Shown one piece after another: positions 487 through 27,048 of a stretch of DNA of 31,258 nt. Below the pieces are notes generated by a model. The model was given only the letters and a program-made list of their open reading frames with translations. It was not told the DNA's origin and made no database searches. Each line of letters starts with the position of its first letter. Positions within the stretch are counted from its first letter, which is position 1. A program made the translations under genes and the position numbers. The DNA is from Candidatus Poribacteria bacterium (GTDB taxonomy: Bacteria; Poribacteria; WGA-4E; WGA-3G). Location: positions 1-31,258 of the forward strand of contig CBDBFU010000022.1 of assembly GCA_965205025.1 (NCBI GenBank), read 5' to 3'.

Positions 487-1092
487 TACCACAAACTATA
501 TGAAGATTAAAATAATAATTCGGTAATGTGTTAGAAATACGGTTCGGTGAATCAACGGTATGAATGCCATAAGGCATTCCCCGGGAAACCGAACCTACCA
601 AGTTTGGGAAAATGAGAATTACCGAATTTAAAACTTAATCCTCATTAAGTTTGTTGTACAAAGAGGTGTTTTATCTGAATCGTGTATTATGCGGATAAGA
701 GTTTTGTCTGTGAGAATTTTCTTGAATGATGAATCAAGGAATCAAGGAATCAACGGTATGAATGCTATTTAGCATTCCCCGTGGTTAGGAAACCGCACTA
801 TAGGAGTCAATTTAGGATACACCTTTCGCCCCGCGAATCAACGGTATGAATGACATTTAGTCATACACCGGGAATGAATGCCATATGAAGATTAATTTAT
901 TAAATCGGTAATATACGGGCGGGTTAACCCCGCCCCTACGATAAGTTTATGGACTGGATTACCGAAATATTTACTTAATCCTCATTAGGCATTCACCGGG
1001 TATGAATGCTATATAGCATTCCCCGCCTACCGGGTTTGGGAAAATTAGGATTACCGAACTATAGATTTAATCCTCATCATACCGCACCTGCC
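487..1092. repeat. nested cluster of REP-like hairpins and MITEs
   Basis: Family A elements ATGAAGATTAA...TTAATCCTCAT at 500-645 and 885-985, plus an orphan right end ending at 1077; 35-nt family B units at 549-583, 747-781, 835-870 and partial 1001-1025; family D left end at 799-816; GTAG-tagged hairpins at 540-599 and 916-940. Confidence 0.85.
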
Positions 1093-9548: not shown

Positions 9549-9744
9549 TAACGTGAGTCTTGTATGGTAATATTTGATATTGGTGTGGAGTATAAACAAC
9601 AAATCCGCGTATTGAATTTGTCTGGAACCACACCTTCCGCGGAAAGAGACCGTGCTGAAATGAATCCTCCTTGATGGAATCCACTCCTACCAAGAGGCTA
9701 ATCCCAAATTGACGTTTATGTTGCAGTTAGAAACCGCATCTACC
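9549..9744. repeat. degenerate REP/MITE cluster
   Basis: Family E-like left end TAACGTGAGT at 9549; family D right end AAATTGACGTTTATG (9706-9720) directly followed by a REP hairpin TTGCAGTTAGAAACCGCATCTACC (9721-9744). Confidence 0.6.
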
Positions 9745-20058: not shown

Positions 20059-23000
20059 TTATTGGTTATCAATTGTATACCGAATCACTCCCTGTCCATC
20101 TGTTCCAACATAGATCGTATCCCCTTCAACATCAAAACACATCACTGGATATGGAATTTCTGATGTAATCTGCTTCCATTTACCAGTGTTGTGATTTAGT
20201 TCATATATTATTTGGTTTGATTCCCCGTAGATAATACTATTATCCACTACTAATCTCCCAATTATGAGTGATGTTTCTTCTTCATCGGTCAATGTAAGCC
20301 ATTCAGTTCCATTACCTGATACAACAACACCCTTATTGGTTGCAACATAGACAAAGTTCCCATTAAAAATAACTGACATAATATAATCCACTGCAAATGG
20401 TAAGTTCTTAGTAACATCAACCCAACTTGTTCCTTCATCAGTTGATTTCATGAGATGTCCATCCAGTTTTCCAACGTATACTGTATCATCTGAAACTGCT
20501 AATTTAAAGCCAATTCTATCAAAAAAGTTATTAGTGGACCAAGCAACTTCGGTAGAATCTTTTGTGTCCAATAGGTTTGTGTCATACCATTCTGAATCAC
20601 CGTCTTTCCATCTCCACAACCTGTGATTGTATTCAGCATAATATGTGGCATCTGTCAAAAATAAACTACCGAGCATAGAGACATAATATTTACCTTTCCC
20701 GTGTGGAATTGAGAATAATTGTCTTCTCATTTCAGGGGGTTGATCCATTCTACCTTTGTGTGGATCAAATGTTGGAATAGTAGGTAAATTAGACAGATGT
20801 TGAAGAGTTTTATCTGTATGAGTAAGTTTATATAAGCGTGGAGTTCCTATTTTATCGTCTCTTCCAAACAACTTCCCATTAGATTCAACAATACCGGTAA
20901 TGTATCCAGTATCGCCATGAACCGATGTCCAAGTATCGCCTTTGTCATTGGAATTGACAAGACCTGTATTTGTATTAGCATAGAGTGTACCATTTACTAC
21001 GACTAATTCTCTAATGTTTCTGTTTACAACTCCAGTATTGAACAAATGCCATGTATTCCCTTCGTCAATAGACCGGTGTATCCCATTCGGTCCACATCTG
21101 TAGAAGTTATTATCTGTTATTACTACTTTACGCGTCCAGTTTCTTATATCCATTTCATACTCTAATAATTTCCAAGTCTTACCTGAATTGTTTGAATAAT
21201 ACTGTTTTAATCCGTCGATAAGAAGTAGTTTTTCACCTGAAATAGTACAGTTGAGAGTTGTATCTATAGATTCTGTAAAAGGTAATTCATTTGTTTTCTT
21301 GCGATCTTTCTTACCCATTGGAAATATATTGGATAGTATACTACGTGTTTGATCTTTCTCAATATTTTTTGGGTTTGGTGTTATAGCTTCCCATGTGCTA
21401 CCTTTGTCCACTGATTTAAATAGAGACCAAGACCAGGCAGGTGTGTTACCTCTACTTCTTATAAATCCTGATCTTGGTTTATTAACTATTGAAATTCCAA
21501 ATCCACTACCTGGGTATGGATCACTTGGATCATTGCTTCTTGCAGCATATAGTCTGTTTTCTGTAACTACCAAATTGAATATTGGCAGTGTGTTCTCTTC
21601 CAGATGATTTTCTTTGATAGACAAATGCTCCCAAATGCGTTTCTTTAAACGATATAATCCATTATCAGTTCCTATGAACACTGTGTTTTTTAGTGCAGCA
21701 ATAGATAGAATACGTCTTTCCATTACACCTTCAAAAAGTGGTGTCCAAGAATCACCTGCCTTTTCATATCGATAAACGCCTTTCTTGTAAGCAAGATATA
21801 TGGTTTTATCACTTTGGTCTTCAGGGAATCCATCTGTAATTACCATACCGATAAGTTGCCCTTTTATACGTTCACACACCACATTCCATGTCACACCTCT
21901 ATCTATCGAAGACAATACTCCTGTACTATTTGCAGTATATAGAGCATTCTTATGCTCTATGATCAAATTTGAATTCCATGGATTGCTACTTGTTAAATCA
22001 GGATGTGAAGGATCAATCCTTGAATTAATCAGCTTCCACGTCGACCTATCATCTGAGAGTCTATATAGATCGTTCTTAGTAATCGCATACAAATCACCAC
22101 GGGTTGTCTTATAGAGCGTATTTACTCTGCCGCCTTCTGGACCTATAATTCCACTCCATTGTCCTTTAATTTCCCCTGCCTGATCTTCATCAGTTTTTCC
22201 TGCACCAAAAATTGATGTTGGTGGATTTTGTATTATATTAGTATTCTTTTCACTTACTACTGTTTTTCCCGTCTGACGTTTGATTACAGGTTTTGTATTG
22301 ACATCCATTAAGACTTTGGCGTCAACAATTTCAATCATTGATTCTGAATTAGCGTTTAGACTATAAGGTTGTTGGAACTGTAATAGGTGCTGCGAACCTA
22401 CTCCTAACAATAATAATAGAAAACAAATTGCAGTCACTGCCGATAACCCTAATGGGACTAAAGGTTTACTCCCCGATGAAGAAACTGGGTTAAGCTGAGA
22501 GATTTGCTTCATAATATTCTCTGACATCTGTCTTGGCAATTGAAAACTACTAAGATATTCTTTAATCATGGCTTCTTCCTTTTCTAATCGTTTTCGTGCA
22601 CGATGCAACCGACTCAGAACTGTGTTAATAGATACACCTAAGAACTTGCTTATATCTTCACAAGTCATCTCTCCTATATAGTGTAGGTTCATTACCGTAC
22701 GTTCACTTTCCTGGAGTTTACTGAGAAGTTTCTGAATGATATCGCGCCGTTTTTGGTCTACATCCTCTTCGCGTTGACGATTCATATAATCGGAATAATA
22801 TGCCTGATCTAATTCAACAGGATCTGTATCTTCTAAAGATTCTAAGACTACACGTTTCTTTCGGTGCCAGTTCTTACACTTATTGCTTGTAAGGACATAG
22901 AGCCATCCTTCAAATCGGTTATGGTGTGTAAGTGAGTTAAGTTTTTTATAGGCAGTAAGGAAAGTGTCCTGAGCAATTTCTTGTGCAATATGATAATCAC

Positions 23001-23118
23001 CAATTTTCTGCCACGCTAAAGCGTGAACCTGTTTTTGGTATTTTTCCACAAGCATAGTAAACGCTTGTTGGTCACCTTCTAAAGTACGTTGAATTAATTC
23101 AGTATCATTATTCTGCAT
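20059..23118 (-). CDS. ECF sigma factor fused to a TM helix and an Asp-box beta-propeller
   Basis: sigma2 (GDQQAFTMLVEKY, AQEIAQDTFL, FEGWLY), sigma4 (LQESERTV, ISKFLGVSINTVLSRLHRARKRL), TM LGLSAVTAICFLLLLLGVG, repeats SIDRGVTW, SVDKGSTW, SIDEGNTW, SNDKGDTW, STDEGTSW. Confidence 0.92.
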   Translation of the reverse strand: MQNNDTELIQRTLEGDQQAFTMLVEKYQKQVHALAWQKIGDYHIAQEIAQDTFLTAYKKLNSLTHHNRFEGWLYVLTSNKCKNWHRKKRVVLESLEDTDPVELDQAYYSDYMNRQREEDVDQKRRDIIQKLLSKLQESERTVMNLHYIGEMTCEDISKFLGVSINTVLSRLHRARKRLEKEEAMIKEYLSSFQLPRQMSENIMKQISQLNPVSSSGSKPLVPLGLSAVTAICFLLLLLGVGSQHLLQFQQPYSLNANSESMIEIVDAKVLMDVNTKPVIKRQTGKTVVSEKNTNIIQNPPTSIFGAGKTDEDQAGEIKGQWSGIIGPEGGRVNTLYKTTRGDLYAITKNDLYRLSDDRSTWKLINSRIDPSHPDLTSSNPWNSNLIIEHKNALYTANSTGVLSSIDRGVTWNVVCERIKGQLIGMVITDGFPEDQSDKTIYLAYKKGVYRYEKAGDSWTPLFEGVMERRILSIAALKNTVFIGTDNGLYRLKKRIWEHLSIKENHLEENTLPIFNLVVTENRLYAARSNDPSDPYPGSGFGISIVNKPRSGFIRSRGNTPAWSWSLFKSVDKGSTWEAITPNPKNIEKDQTRSILSNIFPMGKKDRKKTNELPFTESIDTTLNCTISGEKLLLIDGLKQYYSNNSGKTWKLLEYEMDIRNWTRKVVITDNNFYRCGPNGIHRSIDEGNTWHLFNTGVVNRNIRELVVVNGTLYANTNTGLVNSNDKGDTWTSVHGDTGYITGIVESNGKLFGRDDKIGTPRLYKLTHTDKTLQHLSNLPTIPTFDPHKGRMDQPPEMRRQLFSIPHGKGKYYVSMLGSLFLTDATYYAEYNHRLWRWKDGDSEWYDTNLLDTKDSTEVAWSTNNFFDRIGFKLAVSDDTVYVGKLDGHLMKSTDEGTSWVDVTKNLPFAVDYIMSVIFNGNFVYVATNKGVVVSGNGTEWLTLTDEEETSLIIGRLVVDNSIIYGESNQIIYELNHNTGKWKQITSEIPYPVMCFDVEGDTIYVGTDGQGVIRYTIDNQ

Positions 23119-23152
23119 TACACACCATCACATAAGTAGCTCTTTTAAATTA

Positions 23153-23181
23153 AAGACACAATTTTGAGACGAATTATTGCA
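23153..23181 (-). promoter_or_regulatory. putative ECF sigma promoter (autoregulatory)
   Basis: TGCAAT-aattcgtctcaaaattg-TGTCTT, ~35 nt upstream of the start codon. Confidence 0.55.
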
Positions 23182-23293
23182 TAATTTGAAAGAATTTTGA
23201 TTTTGTAGTTTTCTTTTAGAGAATAGAAATTGATATGTAATCCATAATTTACCATATTCAATTATAGATTATATATCAATTTGATTGTTGATT

Positions 23294-23324
23294 AAAAGAA
23301 AAGCGAGGTTTCTCGCCTCGCTTT
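23294..23324 (-). terminator. intrinsic terminator
   Basis: Minus strand AAAGCGAGG-CGAGAAA-CCTCGCTTT followed by TCTTTT, between the two ECF genes. Confidence 0.7.
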
Positions 23325-23394
23325 GGATAATTACAACTCTAACTTTTTGTATCGTAGTAAATATACTATAGTTTGGATAGTTTTAAGTGATACA

Positions 23395-23957
23395 CCTTTC
23401 ACCCCTCATGAAGTTAAAGAATTTATTCGGGTAATTTCCAGTTTCTTGTAGAATCCGGTGCGGTTAGGAAACCGCACTATAGGCGTCAATTTAGTGGTTT
23501 TCCCAGGCCGGTAGGTGCGATTTCCTAATCGCACCATAGGCATCAATTTAGGATACACCTTTCGCCCCGCTGGGGCTTAGTGTTTTGTGTTTATTACGTT
23601 TTCTACAAACCTTTCGCCCCGCTAGGGCTTGGGATATTGGTGATAACCACTTCTATAGACATTCCGTCCCTACGGGACTCAAAACCAATAAATCATAGTC
23701 TAAATTGACGCTAATAGTGCGATTTCCTAATCGCACTGGATCCTTCGCGAAAAACTTTATGAACGCAATTGGAACAAACCCGGTTCGGTTAGGAAACCGA
23801 ACCTACCGACCTGAAATTTATAGCGTACTTCTCCTTAAATTGACGCCTATGAATCAACGGTATGAATGCTATTTAGCATTCCCCGTGGTTAGGAAACCGC
23901 ACCTACCAGCTCTGGGTCCAAATTGCCTATTTTATTTTTTTAACTTCATCTGGGGCT
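23395..23957. mobile_element. multi-level nested MITE/REP composite
   Basis: Split hairpin CCTTTCACCCCTC / CTGGGGCT encloses an A-like element (ATGAAGTTAAA 23408 ... TTTAACTTCAT 23949), which encloses D (23478-23851), which encloses a second D (23535-23716) containing three more hairpin repeats; B unit at 23851-23885. Confidence 0.85.
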
Positions 23958-24099
23958 ATGCTTTGGTCTAACAGATTTTACTTTTTTTAGAGTTGGATTA
24001 GTGCGAGAAAAGTGGCAAAACCGGAAACACATTGAAAATAGGATGAGTACTTTTCAGAAAATGTCCATACTATAGTAAATATAATATGGACAAATTGTC

Positions 24100-27048
24100 T
24101 TATTCGTCAAGTGTGAATCGAAATACTCCACCACCTTGTGTTCCAACATAAATTGTACTATCATCAACATCAAGACAGGTAACTTGATAAGGGATTTCAG
24201 GTGTAACTTGCTTCCATATTCTTGAATTTTCTTCTATCAGATACACTTTCTTTCCTACAAGTCCAAATAATCTTGTACCGTCCACATTTAGTTTATCTGC
24301 AACAATAGGTATACCATCAGTATCCATGAGTACATCCCAGTCAATGCCATTTTCTGATAGGACGACACCTTTATCAGTTGAAACATAGATAGTATTTCCC
24401 AGAATAGTAATTGTTTTGAATTGATTGACAGACCATGGAAGATTGTCAGTTATATCTTTCCATGTTTCACCCTCATCAACTGACTGCATCAGATGACCAT
24501 TTCTTTTACCGACATACACAGTATTACCTATCACAGCAAATTTACTATTTGTTAAAAATACCAGTCCATGAGTATCTGTAAGTTCATAGTAATTTTTTCC
24601 ATCCAATATTTTGGTATCATACCATTTTGATGTACCAGGTTTCCATCGGTAAAGACTGTCATTATATTCTATATAGATAGCAGCATCACTAACCGCAATA
24701 CCCCATTTTGAAGGAGCAATTTCTATCCAATATTTTTCTGAATAATTAATGTCAGGACCAGATGATTTTCCTTTTTTAGATTTCCGTAGAATATCCGATC
24801 TGTCATTTATCGGGATCCAACGATTGTCCTTTTCGTTAATAGCCAATTCTGGGATAGCTGGGACTAAGACAAATTTCTTTTCTTGACTTGAAAAATGCAT
24901 GAGTCTTCTGTCTGCATTTATCCGATAGAACTTCCCATCAGAACCTTTAATTATATTCTTTACATTTGCTTCAGATAGAATAGATGTCCACGATTCACCT
25001 TTATCATTTGAAGCAAAAAGTCCTGTATCTACATAAGCATAAATTGTATTGTCTATTGTTACTAAATTGTTGATATGTGTTCCAATCAATCCAAAATTGA
25101 ATTTTTGCCATGACTTACCACCGTTCATTGTACGATGAATTCCATGTATACCACATTTGAAAAAAGTATCAGTATTTAACATGACAGCATCAGTTGTATT
25201 GTAAAAGTGTGCATGATTACCAGTATCATAAGTCCAATCTTCACCTTCGTTTTCTGAATAATAATTCATTCCTTGTACTATAATTACCTTTTTACCTGCA
25301 GCAACAATCTTAATATTGGGATTAGAGTTATTATATCTATTCTTCATCAGGTTTTCTCTTGGTTGCATTAAATTCCAAGAATTACCACCGTCAATCGAAC
25401 GGTAAAAGAAACAACTGGAATCACTTAATGTGGAAAAAGTAATGTATTGACCATACTTTTGTGTGATTATATTACCAACTGCGACGTATATTCGATTTCC
25501 AGAAACTGTTAAGTCGAGAATCGACCAAGTGTTATTTTTCATTTCTGTATTGTCAAATGTAATTAATTCCCAGTTTTTATCATTTAGACGATAGAGTCCT
25601 TGGTCTGTTCCTGCGAATATAGTTTTTTCAACAGTTGCCATAGAACGGATTTTCTTATCAATTAAACCTTCCCGTAAGGGTGTCCAAGTGTTTCCCATAT
25701 CAACAGTACGGATGATCCTATCTGGTAGTGCAAGATAAATTACTACTTCAGCCGCTGTTTCTGAAATACTGTCAGTAATCTCAATGCCAACAGGGAATCC
25801 CTTAGGATGGGAACAAAGTGTTTTCCAAGTTTCTCCTCTGTCTAATGAAGTCAATATTTCATTGTTAGTGGCTATAAATAGAATGTCATTTCGTTCTGTT
25901 ACAGGCCACCACTTCATAGGATTCTCATTTGAAGTAGTAAATGGATCATTGAATTTATATACATGTATCCATCTATTACCGTCATCCGAAAGTCTATAAA
26001 GATGGTTTCGAGCTCCCGCATATATGTCACCACGAGTTGATACGAAAAGGTCTGAGACTCTACCACCTTCCGGACCTTTTGTCTGAATCCACTGTGAATC
26101 GGAGTGTGTTGCCTTATCTTGATTGTCTTGTGTTATATCGTCAACAACATCAGTTTTCTGGTTTTTACCATTGTTCTGAGCAGTTATATCAGATCCTCCA
26201 ATTAACTTCTTAACAACTGGTTTTGATGGTAAATCCAATACAATTTGTGCATCAACAATCTCTATAGTATTTTTTGATGAACCGGTTAAATTGTAAGGTT
26301 GCTGAAATTGTAGCTGCGGTTGTGAACCAATTCCCATAAGCAGTAGAACCAATACAACAGATATAGAAGAAATCGCCAATGGTATAAGGGGTTTGCTTCC
26401 AACCGGAGGAGTCGATGGAATTTGATTTTTTACCTTCTTCATAATGTTATCAGCCATGTGTGATGGTAATTTAAAACTATTAAGGTTTTCTATGATTAAA
26501 TCTTCGTCCTTTTTCAATCTGTTCCGAGCACGATTCAGCCTACTTTTAATAGTATTCTGAGAGACACCAAGAAACTTGCTAATAGATTCACATGTCATTT
26601 CCCCAAGATAATGAAGTGTCATTACAGTTCGTTCACTTTCCGGTAATTTATTCAGCAATTTTCTCACCAAGAGTCGACGAGATTCATCTTCATCCAATTT
26701 ACGCTGTTCTTCAACATATTCATTGTATGACACTTGATCCACCTCTTTAGTATCAACGGTCTCTAAGGATTGTATGGGTAAATGATTCTTACGTAACCAA
26801 TCTGCACATAGACGTATGGCAATTACATATAACCACCCAGAAAACATCTTATGGTCTTTCAAAGTGTCCAGTCTTTGATATGCCTTTAGAAAAGCATCCT
26901 GCGTAATTTCCTGGGCAATATGAAAGTCCCCAATCTTTTGCCATATCAAGGCATGCAGTCCTTTTTGGTATTTCTCTACTAAAGTAGTAAATGCTGCTTG
27001 GTTTCCGTCTAATATCTGCTGAATCAATTCAACATCTTTCATTTTCAT
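24100..27048 (-). CDS. ECF sigma factor fused to a TM helix and an Asp-box beta-propeller (paralogue)
   Basis: GNQAAFTTLVEKY, AQEITQDAFL, LPESERTV, FLGVSQNTIKSRLNRARNRL, TM LAISSISVVLVLLLMGIG, repeats SLDRGETW, TVDMGNTW, SIDGGNSW, SNDKGESW, SVDEGETW; GGAGG RBS. Confidence 0.92.
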   Translation of the reverse strand: MKMKDVELIQQILDGNQAAFTTLVEKYQKGLHALIWQKIGDFHIAQEITQDAFLKAYQRLDTLKDHKMFSGWLYVIAIRLCADWLRKNHLPIQSLETVDTKEVDQVSYNEYVEEQRKLDEDESRRLLVRKLLNKLPESERTVMTLHYLGEMTCESISKFLGVSQNTIKSRLNRARNRLKKDEDLIIENLNSFKLPSHMADNIMKKVKNQIPSTPPVGSKPLIPLAISSISVVLVLLLMGIGSQPQLQFQQPYNLTGSSKNTIEIVDAQIVLDLPSKPVVKKLIGGSDITAQNNGKNQKTDVVDDITQDNQDKATHSDSQWIQTKGPEGGRVSDLFVSTRGDIYAGARNHLYRLSDDGNRWIHVYKFNDPFTTSNENPMKWWPVTERNDILFIATNNEILTSLDRGETWKTLCSHPKGFPVGIEITDSISETAAEVVIYLALPDRIIRTVDMGNTWTPLREGLIDKKIRSMATVEKTIFAGTDQGLYRLNDKNWELITFDNTEMKNNTWSILDLTVSGNRIYVAVGNIITQKYGQYITFSTLSDSSCFFYRSIDGGNSWNLMQPRENLMKNRYNNSNPNIKIVAAGKKVIIVQGMNYYSENEGEDWTYDTGNHAHFYNTTDAVMLNTDTFFKCGIHGIHRTMNGGKSWQKFNFGLIGTHINNLVTIDNTIYAYVDTGLFASNDKGESWTSILSEANVKNIIKGSDGKFYRINADRRLMHFSSQEKKFVLVPAIPELAINEKDNRWIPINDRSDILRKSKKGKSSGPDINYSEKYWIEIAPSKWGIAVSDAAIYIEYNDSLYRWKPGTSKWYDTKILDGKNYYELTDTHGLVFLTNSKFAVIGNTVYVGKRNGHLMQSVDEGETWKDITDNLPWSVNQFKTITILGNTIYVSTDKGVVLSENGIDWDVLMDTDGIPIVADKLNVDGTRLFGLVGKKVYLIEENSRIWKQVTPEIPYQVTCLDVDDSTIYVGTQGGGVFRFTLDE

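Follow-up and report, generated by a model that had tools for sequence, protein, structure and literature searches.

Insertion sequences of the IS4 family are tabulated with target duplications of 7-13 bp (Table 1, PMC2266710), and the same source describes the members as duplicating about one helical turn of target DNA and derived families about half a turn. The length of the duplication is a direct read-out of the hold that a transposase has on its target and is normally fixed within a family. For the IS231 subgroup it is given as 10-12 bp (Table 1, PMC2266710), and for Tn5/IS50, which belongs to the same family, as 9 bp (PMC1525189), so that the Tn5 active sites act one helical turn apart and not two. 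Some insertion sequences are directed to REPs, short and abundant palindromes for which a GTAG tag is described as typical when they are RAYT-associated (PMC3733652). According to Tobes and Pareja 2006 (PMC1525189), ISRm22 and other REP-targeting insertion sequences, one of them of the IS4 family, insert almost exclusively into REP-type palindromes and have a palindromic target consensus; ISRm22 breaks the REP at the axis of the palindrome with 6-bp repeats, and the other REP-targeting elements leave 0-2 bp. Long duplications (16-28 bp) made by a single DDE transposase are described for the IS1202 group, whose transposase is modelled on Tn7 TnsB and whose ends read TGT...ACA; the source reports no site preference for this group (PMC10132070). 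Our search of the open literature returned no 19- or 20-bp duplication in IS4-type elements, individual members of which are possibly listed in ISfinder, and nothing relevant on transposons of Poribacteria.

Here we describe a new element of the IS4/IS231-like type that combines a doubled target duplication, about twice as long as that of its described relatives, with a targeting of REP-type hairpins that preserves the hairpin. The duplication is 19-20 bp long where IS231 has 10-12 bp, and about 20 bp long where Tn5/IS50 has 9 bp. Unlike the ISRm22-type elements, the new element cuts at either outer end of the hairpin, and an intact hairpin remains on both sides; like the IS1202 group, the element makes long duplications with a single DDE transposase, but this transposase is predicted to be Tn5-like and the ends are CAT...ATG. 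The repeats concerned, called D elements, lie in a 31,258-nt stretch of DNA (the window) that is the whole of one contig of a Candidatus Poribacteria genome (5.66 Mb, 33 contigs). From the static sequence that makes up all of the duplication evidence, we conclude that D elements are very probably non-coding MITEs moved in trans by an IS4-family insertion sequence that duplicates about 20 bp, with a stagger that is characteristic of the transposase clade and does not arise from hairpin extrusion.

Two D elements are nested in the window, one inside the other, within a host MITE that spans 23408-23949 (ATGAAGTTAAAG...CTTTAACTTCAT) and whose central hairpin is occupied by the outer D (Table 1). 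Once the inner D is removed, the outer D (ends TATAGGCGTCAATTTA and TAAATTGACGCCTATG) matches the plan of uninterrupted copies on two other contigs (C7 146231-146402 and C10 48317-48488); each of these has a single GTGCGATTTCCTAATCGCAC, and the window has two, around the insert. A paralogue of the host MITE on C12 has one hairpin copy only. With one hairpin in the uninterrupted paralogues, the inner and the outer insertion each made two hairpins from one. The earlier note had described exact direct copies around the inner D, at 23515-23534 and 23717-23736, of which the left alone is GTAG-tagged, and had placed the outer D between a hairpin at 23458-23477 and a CTACC-tailed copy at 23885-23902 interrupted by module B; both descriptions are exact in their coordinates, and the tag of the former reads GGTAG (23510-23514). 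As the 172-bp D MITE carries two hairpins near its ends, members of the family insert into one another and form nests. The second of these hairpins, GTTCGGTTAGGAAACCGAAC, free in the window, is occupied at C20 154422-154588. Three hairpins are cargo of the inner D: two are GCCCCGCTGGGGC, and the third is of the type found beside the RAYT-like genes of this genome. Rfam gave no match at E of at most 1 for positions 23000-24400. The host MITE in turn apparently lies within the loop of another type of hairpin (ACCTTTCACCCCTC at 23390-23407 and CTGGGGCT at 23950-23965, comparable to ACCTTTCGCCCCGCTGGGGCT inside the inner D), which would give at least four levels of nesting.

Table 1. Features of the nested D insertions and of the other D ends in the window.
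Feature	Coordinates	Strand	Remark
Host MITE, left arm (ATGAAGTTAAAG...GAATCCG)	23408..23457	+	Same arms round a single hairpin in the C12 paralogue
Outer D target duplication, left copy: hairpin GTGCGGTTAGGAAACCGCAC	23458..23477	+	
Outer D, 172-bp MITE carrying the inner D	23478..23851	+	TIRs 23478-23493, 23836-23851
GGTAG tag (23510-23514) and left subterminal hairpin of outer D, GTGCGATTTCCTAATCGCAC	23510..23534	+	Inner D target
Inner D, 182-bp MITE with D-type TIRs CATAGGCATCAATTTAG / CTAAATTGACGCTAATA	23535..23716	+	
Inner D 20-bp duplication, right copy, untagged	23717..23736	+	100% identical to 23515-23534
Outer D second subterminal hairpin GTTCGGTTAGGAAACCGAAC and CTACC tag, unoccupied	23783..23807	+	
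Module B, 33-nt hairpin insert AATCAACGGTATGAATGCTATTTAGCATTCCCC	23852..23884	+	At the outer D / hairpin junction
Outer D duplication, right copy GTGGTTAGGAAACCGCAC (23885-23902), 18 nt, and CTACC of the original target (23903-23907)	23885..23907	+	
Host MITE, right arm (...TTTTTTTAACTTCAT)	23908..23949	+	
Module B (748-780), 18-nt hairpin GTGGTTAGGAAACCGCAC (781-798), orphan D left end (799-815)	748..815	+	
Degenerate D right end (9706-9720), degenerate hairpin TTGCAGTTAGAAACCGCAT (9721-9739), CTACC tag	9706..9744	+	

Allowing up to 2 mismatches, the window has five matches to the D end motif where 0.11 would be expected, and none of 100 shuffles reached five; a sixth end, at 9720, has 3 mismatches to the motif. 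All six ends touch a hairpin, those at 799 and 9720 included, as had been noticed before. Genome-wide only 59 of 211 ends adjoin the hairpin, which makes the window richer in hairpin targets than the genome overall. Module B (AATCAACGGTATGAATGCTATTTAGCATTCCCC) is an independent repeat with a small hairpin of its own. Of its 286 tails in the genome, 12 adjoin a D end and 54 lie at one fixed position, the untagged foot of the GTGCGG hairpin, whose length is then 18 nt. At 23852 module B, which cut the right hairpin copy of the outer D to 18 nt, must have arrived later than the outer D.

Following the copies of the D ends through the genome, as the earlier note had advised, led to the autonomous partner. 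At up to 2 mismatches the end motif has 211 matches, and 11 end pairs enclose a 1455-bp IS4-family insertion sequence bounded by T/ATAGG...CCTAT/G, with IS231-like ends, Y-ATAGGCGTCAATTTA. The 439-aa transposase ORF is the same (100% identity) in 10 of the copies, the eleventh being 96% identical. The protein matches Pfam DDE_Tnp_1 (PF01609; E 2.9e-25, 89.7 bits against a cut-off of 23) and NCBIfam transpos_IS4_1 (211.7 bits, cut-off 115). Across 40 aligned relatives D191, R320, E324 and K331 are invariant and D119 nearly so; the R, E and K of the IS4 signature Y-(2)-R-(3)-E-(6)-K are present, and its Y position, A317 here, shows no conservation in the consensus. The transposase sequence gave no match in the PDB, whereas a fold search did: with an AlphaFold2 model (pLDDT 93.7) as query, the top five Foldseek hits were all Tn5 transposase (1MM8, 1MUH; E 2e-8 to 6e-8, probability 1.00, TM about 0.41-0.47). 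By its profile matches, its conserved residues and this model, the D mover is an IS4-family transposase with a predicted Tn5-like fold, and the chemistry implied by this best structural match would be cut-and-paste.

The closest named relative is the IS231 subgroup (IS231F and IS231Q, Bacillus thuringiensis plasmids), with 29% identity over 95-96% of the protein. Both have a single DDE_Tnp_1 transposase, about 40 residues shorter in D (439 vs 477 aa), and nearly the same ends (CATGCCCATCAACTTAAG in IS231F, CATAGGCGTCAATTTAG in D). Compared with the end signature given for the IS231 subgroup, CAT-------AA--TAA--- (PMC2266710), the right end of the insertion sequence, CATAGGCGTCAATTTAG, has CAT and AA at 11-12 but TAG at 15-17, and the left end starts with TAT. 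The insertion sequence and the MITEs have only their ends of about 16 nt in common. Together they make up the D family, of which the MITEs are 168-589 bp long. Counted by the 15-16-nt ends of the insertion sequence and 18-20-bp duplications, 23 elements of 168-1350 bp qualify, and the 1350-bp one is not non-coding, as it holds an IS630-like gene pair. Located at C28 257372-258721, this element is bounded by D-type ends and by a 20-bp duplication whose copies differ at one position; its two ORFs, named by eye, resemble an IS630/Tc1-type transposase (the HTH part, then ...DNAKIHK...PPYSPDYNPIE).

We compared the flanks of 79 candidate left/right pairs after setting the element ends one base outside ATAGG. 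Matching flanks were found in 32 pairs, at 20 bp in 24, at 19 bp in seven and at 18 bp in one, so that all 32 duplicated elements (nine insertion sequences and 23 MITEs) lie outside the IS4-family norm. At many sites the exact length may be off by 1-2 bp, since the target ends (G...C) look like the terminal bases of the element. Twenty-one of the elements lie in a GTGCGGTTTCCTAACCGCAC-type hairpin and 11 in unrelated, non-palindromic sequence; with 18-20 bp of unrelated sequence duplicated around these 11 complete elements, the hairpins are not invariant parts of D, in line with the earlier note. Because so many flanks are the same hairpin, a control over all flanks is weak (402 of 4796 non-cognate pairs score at least 12), and the case therefore rests on the non-hairpin subset, the comparison of hairpin variants and the hairpin census. 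In the subset with non-hairpin flanks, 11 of 26 pairs score at least 13, against 4 of 4788 non-cognate controls that reach at least 12, with a maximum of 13.

Among the 11 copies of the insertion sequence, eight have perfect 20-bp repeats, one of them the non-hairpin GTTTGTTGAATACCTAACAC, and a ninth has repeats with 2 mismatches. The other two (C28 219317-220769 and C27 101225-102677) have non-matching flanks, namely inverted hairpins with their tags outward, and are attributed, by analogy with a process described for ISRm22 (PMC1525189), to recombination between copies. When the empty site was reconstructed at three non-hairpin targets, it matched, across the junction, many uninterrupted members of another repeat family. 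Empty sites hold one copy of the target in the non-hairpin case and, in uninterrupted paralogues, for the outer-D hairpin and the host-MITE hairpin. At the C4 locus of the insertion sequence, the orthologous region of a genome of the same genus (G044) has conserved flanking genes about 40 bp apart; it is without the whole mobile-element-filled spacer and hence offers no clean empty site. Assemblies of four sponge or related runs contained no joint at the C4 locus that removes the insertion sequence, and their contigs, which break at repeats, are uninformative either way. The insertion sequence of the locus C4 71136-74188 also occurs nearly full length and with few differences in sponge/marine contigs from other studies (runs X1, X16 and X18), for example on a metagenome contig of 1459 nt with 20 differences.

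The transposase family comprises 936 representative clusters at E of at most 1e-30. Of the genomes searched, 19 of 24 in the same genus contain relatives, as does 1 of 16 in other families of the order, and the named matches are all Candidatus Poribacteria MAGs. Nezha/ISNpu3-type MITEs of a cyanobacterial genome were dropped as candidates for that reason. A first pass over other Poribacteria genomes gave 19-20-bp repeats at 17 of 39 loci with both ends; in OZ243938.1, anchored on the outer end, all 13 copies have perfect 20-bp repeats, ten in the same hairpin and three in unrelated sequence. Copies at 49-58% identity in five other genomes duplicate 18-20 bp, as read by eye with ends ambiguous by 1-2 bp, and their targets are a different GTAG-type hairpin (GTC/GGGTTTCGC...CTCTACCC/GAC) and non-hairpin DNA. 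Two plasmid copies from Chloroflexota, at 33-34% identity, have 20-bp flanks (GGGTGCTAAAACCAGTGCCC; Candidatus Chlorohelix) and 19-21-bp flanks (Herpetosiphon aurantiacus pHAU01).

Forty-three metagenome loci (31-42% identity, anchored on the CAT end) had both ends and sufficient flanking sequence. Nine of them have repeats, eight of 20 bp, one of 21 bp and none of about 10 bp, against 10 of 3000 in the control. The remaining 34 have no matching flanks, plausibly from chimeric assembly across the repeat. Some copies of the insertion sequence lie between two different hairpins with their tags outward (GTAG-hairpin A, insertion sequence, hairpin B-CTAC; for example L138, L150 and L204). This arrangement is frequent in short-read metagenome contigs and may reflect recombination between copies or chimeric assembly. 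In the same pipeline IS231F came out at 12 bp and a relative from Clostridium tagluense at 11 bp; their ends (CATGCCCATCAACTTAAG and CATAGCCATCAAGCTAAG, respectively) are of the same type as those of D. In a tree, a branch with 100/100 support divides the 17 rows that have 18-21 bp from these two elements; the rows were chosen for a clear duplication and loci without repeats were left out, so that the tree illustrates the split between 20 and about 11 bp and is no test of it.

The earlier note had explained the duplication by staggered cleavage at the base of a hairpin or cruciform, and the alternative closest to this, in which the transposase attacks the base of an extruded structure and 20 bp is the length of the hairpin and not a measure set by the enzyme, is the best of the rival readings but still improbable. 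The cuts do fall exactly at both bases of the 8-bp stem, the single-stranded hairpin folds at -8.4 kcal/mol, 21 of the 32 insertions are in hairpins, and GTAG-type hairpins of about 20 bp are targets of more distant relatives as well. However, 11 of the 32 insertions here, three of the 13 in the other genome and several of the distant relatives duplicate 18-20 bp of non-hairpin sequence, and the length is the same whatever the type of target. Moreover, the relatives that use a different hairpin cut inside its stem (GTC/GGG...CCC/GAC) and not at its base. The 11 insertions into non-palindromic sequence place the 20-bp stagger with the transposase, independent of a cruciform. Hence the duplication of a 20-bp hairpin stands, and the need for structure does not, non-palindromic targets being duplicated to the same length.

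A stagger set by the transposase is also consistent with the composition of the targets. Across 16 duplications of non-hairpin sequence, taken from this genome and others, 2.4 of the 7 inner positions are self-complementary, compared with 1.8 for random 20-mers. Of their 32 half-sites, 27 have G at position 1, and 28 have T or G at position 2, as do 28 at position 3. The hairpin stem, GTGCGG.../...CCGCAC, reproduces this bias with perfect two-fold symmetry. We propose that a symmetric transposase assembly would read half-sites of the form G/GTK...MAC/C and that the strand transfers of a cut-and-paste DDE reaction would fall on target phosphates 20 bp apart, about two helical turns, so that the D clade would span two turns of target DNA. 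Both half-sites are perfectly present in the palindromic stem, and this would account for the preference for hairpins. A symmetric target is reportedly also preferred by IS231A, as found by Hallet et al. in 1994. The sequences compared show that, after insertion, 20 bp of target (18-20 in this genome, 19-21 in relatives) stand as a direct repeat on both sides. At the preferred target, what is duplicated is exactly the hairpin minus its tag, so that tag-hairpin becomes tag-hairpin, element, hairpin. Each such insertion therefore adds one intact hairpin.

The census of hairpins agrees with this scheme. The preferred target is a 20-bp hairpin with an 8-bp stem, a 4-nt loop and a native GGTAG tag on one side. 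Allowing up to 3 mismatches, we counted 221 oriented hairpins. Of the tagged ones, 151 stand alone and 32 are directly followed by an element; of those without a tag, 33 directly follow an element and one lies between two elements. Four more untagged hairpins are only apparently free, one being a miscall of orientation, two having module B between tag and hairpin and one being degenerate. An untagged hairpin therefore occurs only as the far copy of a duplication, which is what a 20-bp duplication excluding the tag predicts. The 34 untagged copies, all directly behind an element, bear out the claim that each insertion into a hairpin multiplies it; such by-products of D insertion make up 15% of the 221. 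A further 38 hairpins (17%) are subterminal cargo of D-type MITEs, 12 of them occupied in their turn, and solitary hairpins sit centrally in other MITE families.

The two flanks of an element also agree in the variant of hairpin that they carry, as the earlier note had supposed. In 20 pairs with a hairpin on both sides, assembled with nesting taken into account, 17 are identical 20-mers and 18 differ by at most one base, whereas partners shuffled 2000 times gave on average 3.5 identical pairs and at most 10. The loops on both sides are direct and not inverted. In favour of a reading in which D inserts between pre-existing tandem hairpins, with little or no duplication of its own, hairpin doublets do occur in the genome, for example GGTAG-GTTCGG...GAAC-12 nt-GTGCGGTTAGAAACCGCAC-CTACC. 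These doublets, however, are inverted and not direct, the uninterrupted paralogues of the elements struck in the window hold one copy, and the genome has no untagged hairpin free of an element once the four apparent cases are explained, which makes a tandem origin very improbable.

An equally poor prospect is that another enzyme makes the duplications, such as a REP-directed RAYT/Y1 transposase or a site-specific recombinase whose core is 20 bp long. The hairpin does carry the GTAG tag described as typical of RAYT-associated REPs (PMC3733652), with GGTAG at up to 1 mismatch in front of 183 of the 221 copies, and the genome encodes three near-identical 170-aa Y1_Tnp proteins of RAYT or IS200-like type (C27 72631-72975, 86996-87340 and 53137-53481). 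These genes, however, are flanked by tandem arrays of a different hairpin, GAGTCCCGTAGGGACGGAATGTCTATAG, contained in a unit of about 51 bp, and within 700 bp of each of the three genes there is no hairpin of the GTGCGG type. In addition, the duplicated sequence varies by site, unlike the core of a recombinase, and every duplication is bounded by the inverted ends of a DDE transposase gene present in 10 identical copies. The earlier identification of the target as a REP is thus upheld in part: the hairpin is REP-like, that is, short, abundant, palindromic and GTAG-tagged, but it is carried inside MITEs, and with a different hairpin beside the RAYT-like genes we call it REP-like and not a RAYT-associated REP. 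One copy of the GAGTCCCGTAGGGACGGAATGTCTATAG hairpin is cargo of the inner D (window 23650-23690).

That the hairpins are an extended terminal inverted repeat of the element, with nothing duplicated, we consider already refuted: a palindrome on both sides resembles a longer inverted repeat, another family in this genome has a fixed inverted 20-22-bp segment outside a D-like end, and two of the 11 copies of the insertion sequence have inverted hairpins, but the loops are direct in 17-18 of 20 pairs, the tag is on one side only, flanks vary between loci and match within a locus, non-hairpin flanks are duplicated to equal length, and insert-free paralogues keep one hairpin.

Movement in trans by a transposase with a 20-bp stagger gives small hairpin repeats a concrete route to increase, in which they ride in MITEs and each hairpin that is struck becomes two. 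With 20 bp against the 9-12 bp of its relatives, a clade that has a Tn5-like predicted fold and IS231-like ends forms with them a natural pair for the study of active-site spacing on target DNA. Annotators who meet 20-bp direct repeats flanking an IS4-type element should not reject them as out of range. A wider generalization is conceivable, and we advance it tentatively, as something that may well prove wrong: an IS4/IS231-like subgroup spread across several phyla might make its strand transfers two turns apart, aimed at the feet of REP-type hairpins, and serve as a general copying engine for intact hairpins; in concert with MITEs that carry hairpins, it might be a main route by which GTAG-type hairpins multiply in such genomes, independently of RAYT. 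Cas1-Cas2 and casposons carry out a staggered attack at the two borders of a palindromic repeat, and each integration adds a full repeat. If the generalization is true, the hairpin-copying engine would parallel repeat duplication at CRISPR arrays in outcome; the analogy is one of outcome only, as the enzyme families are unrelated and D forms no array.

Several other repeat families of this genome are bounded by a different end of 20-22 bp, GGGTGTGTAAAGTTTTTGTCAC, which has 286 matches at up to 5 mismatches (for example C33 69187-70142 and C10 10800-11131). In one subfamily GGGTGTGTAAAGTTTTTGTCAC stands inverted at both ends, directly outside a D-like end, CATAGGTGTTAATTTA, and there a fixed 20-bp segment occupies the position that the duplication has in D.
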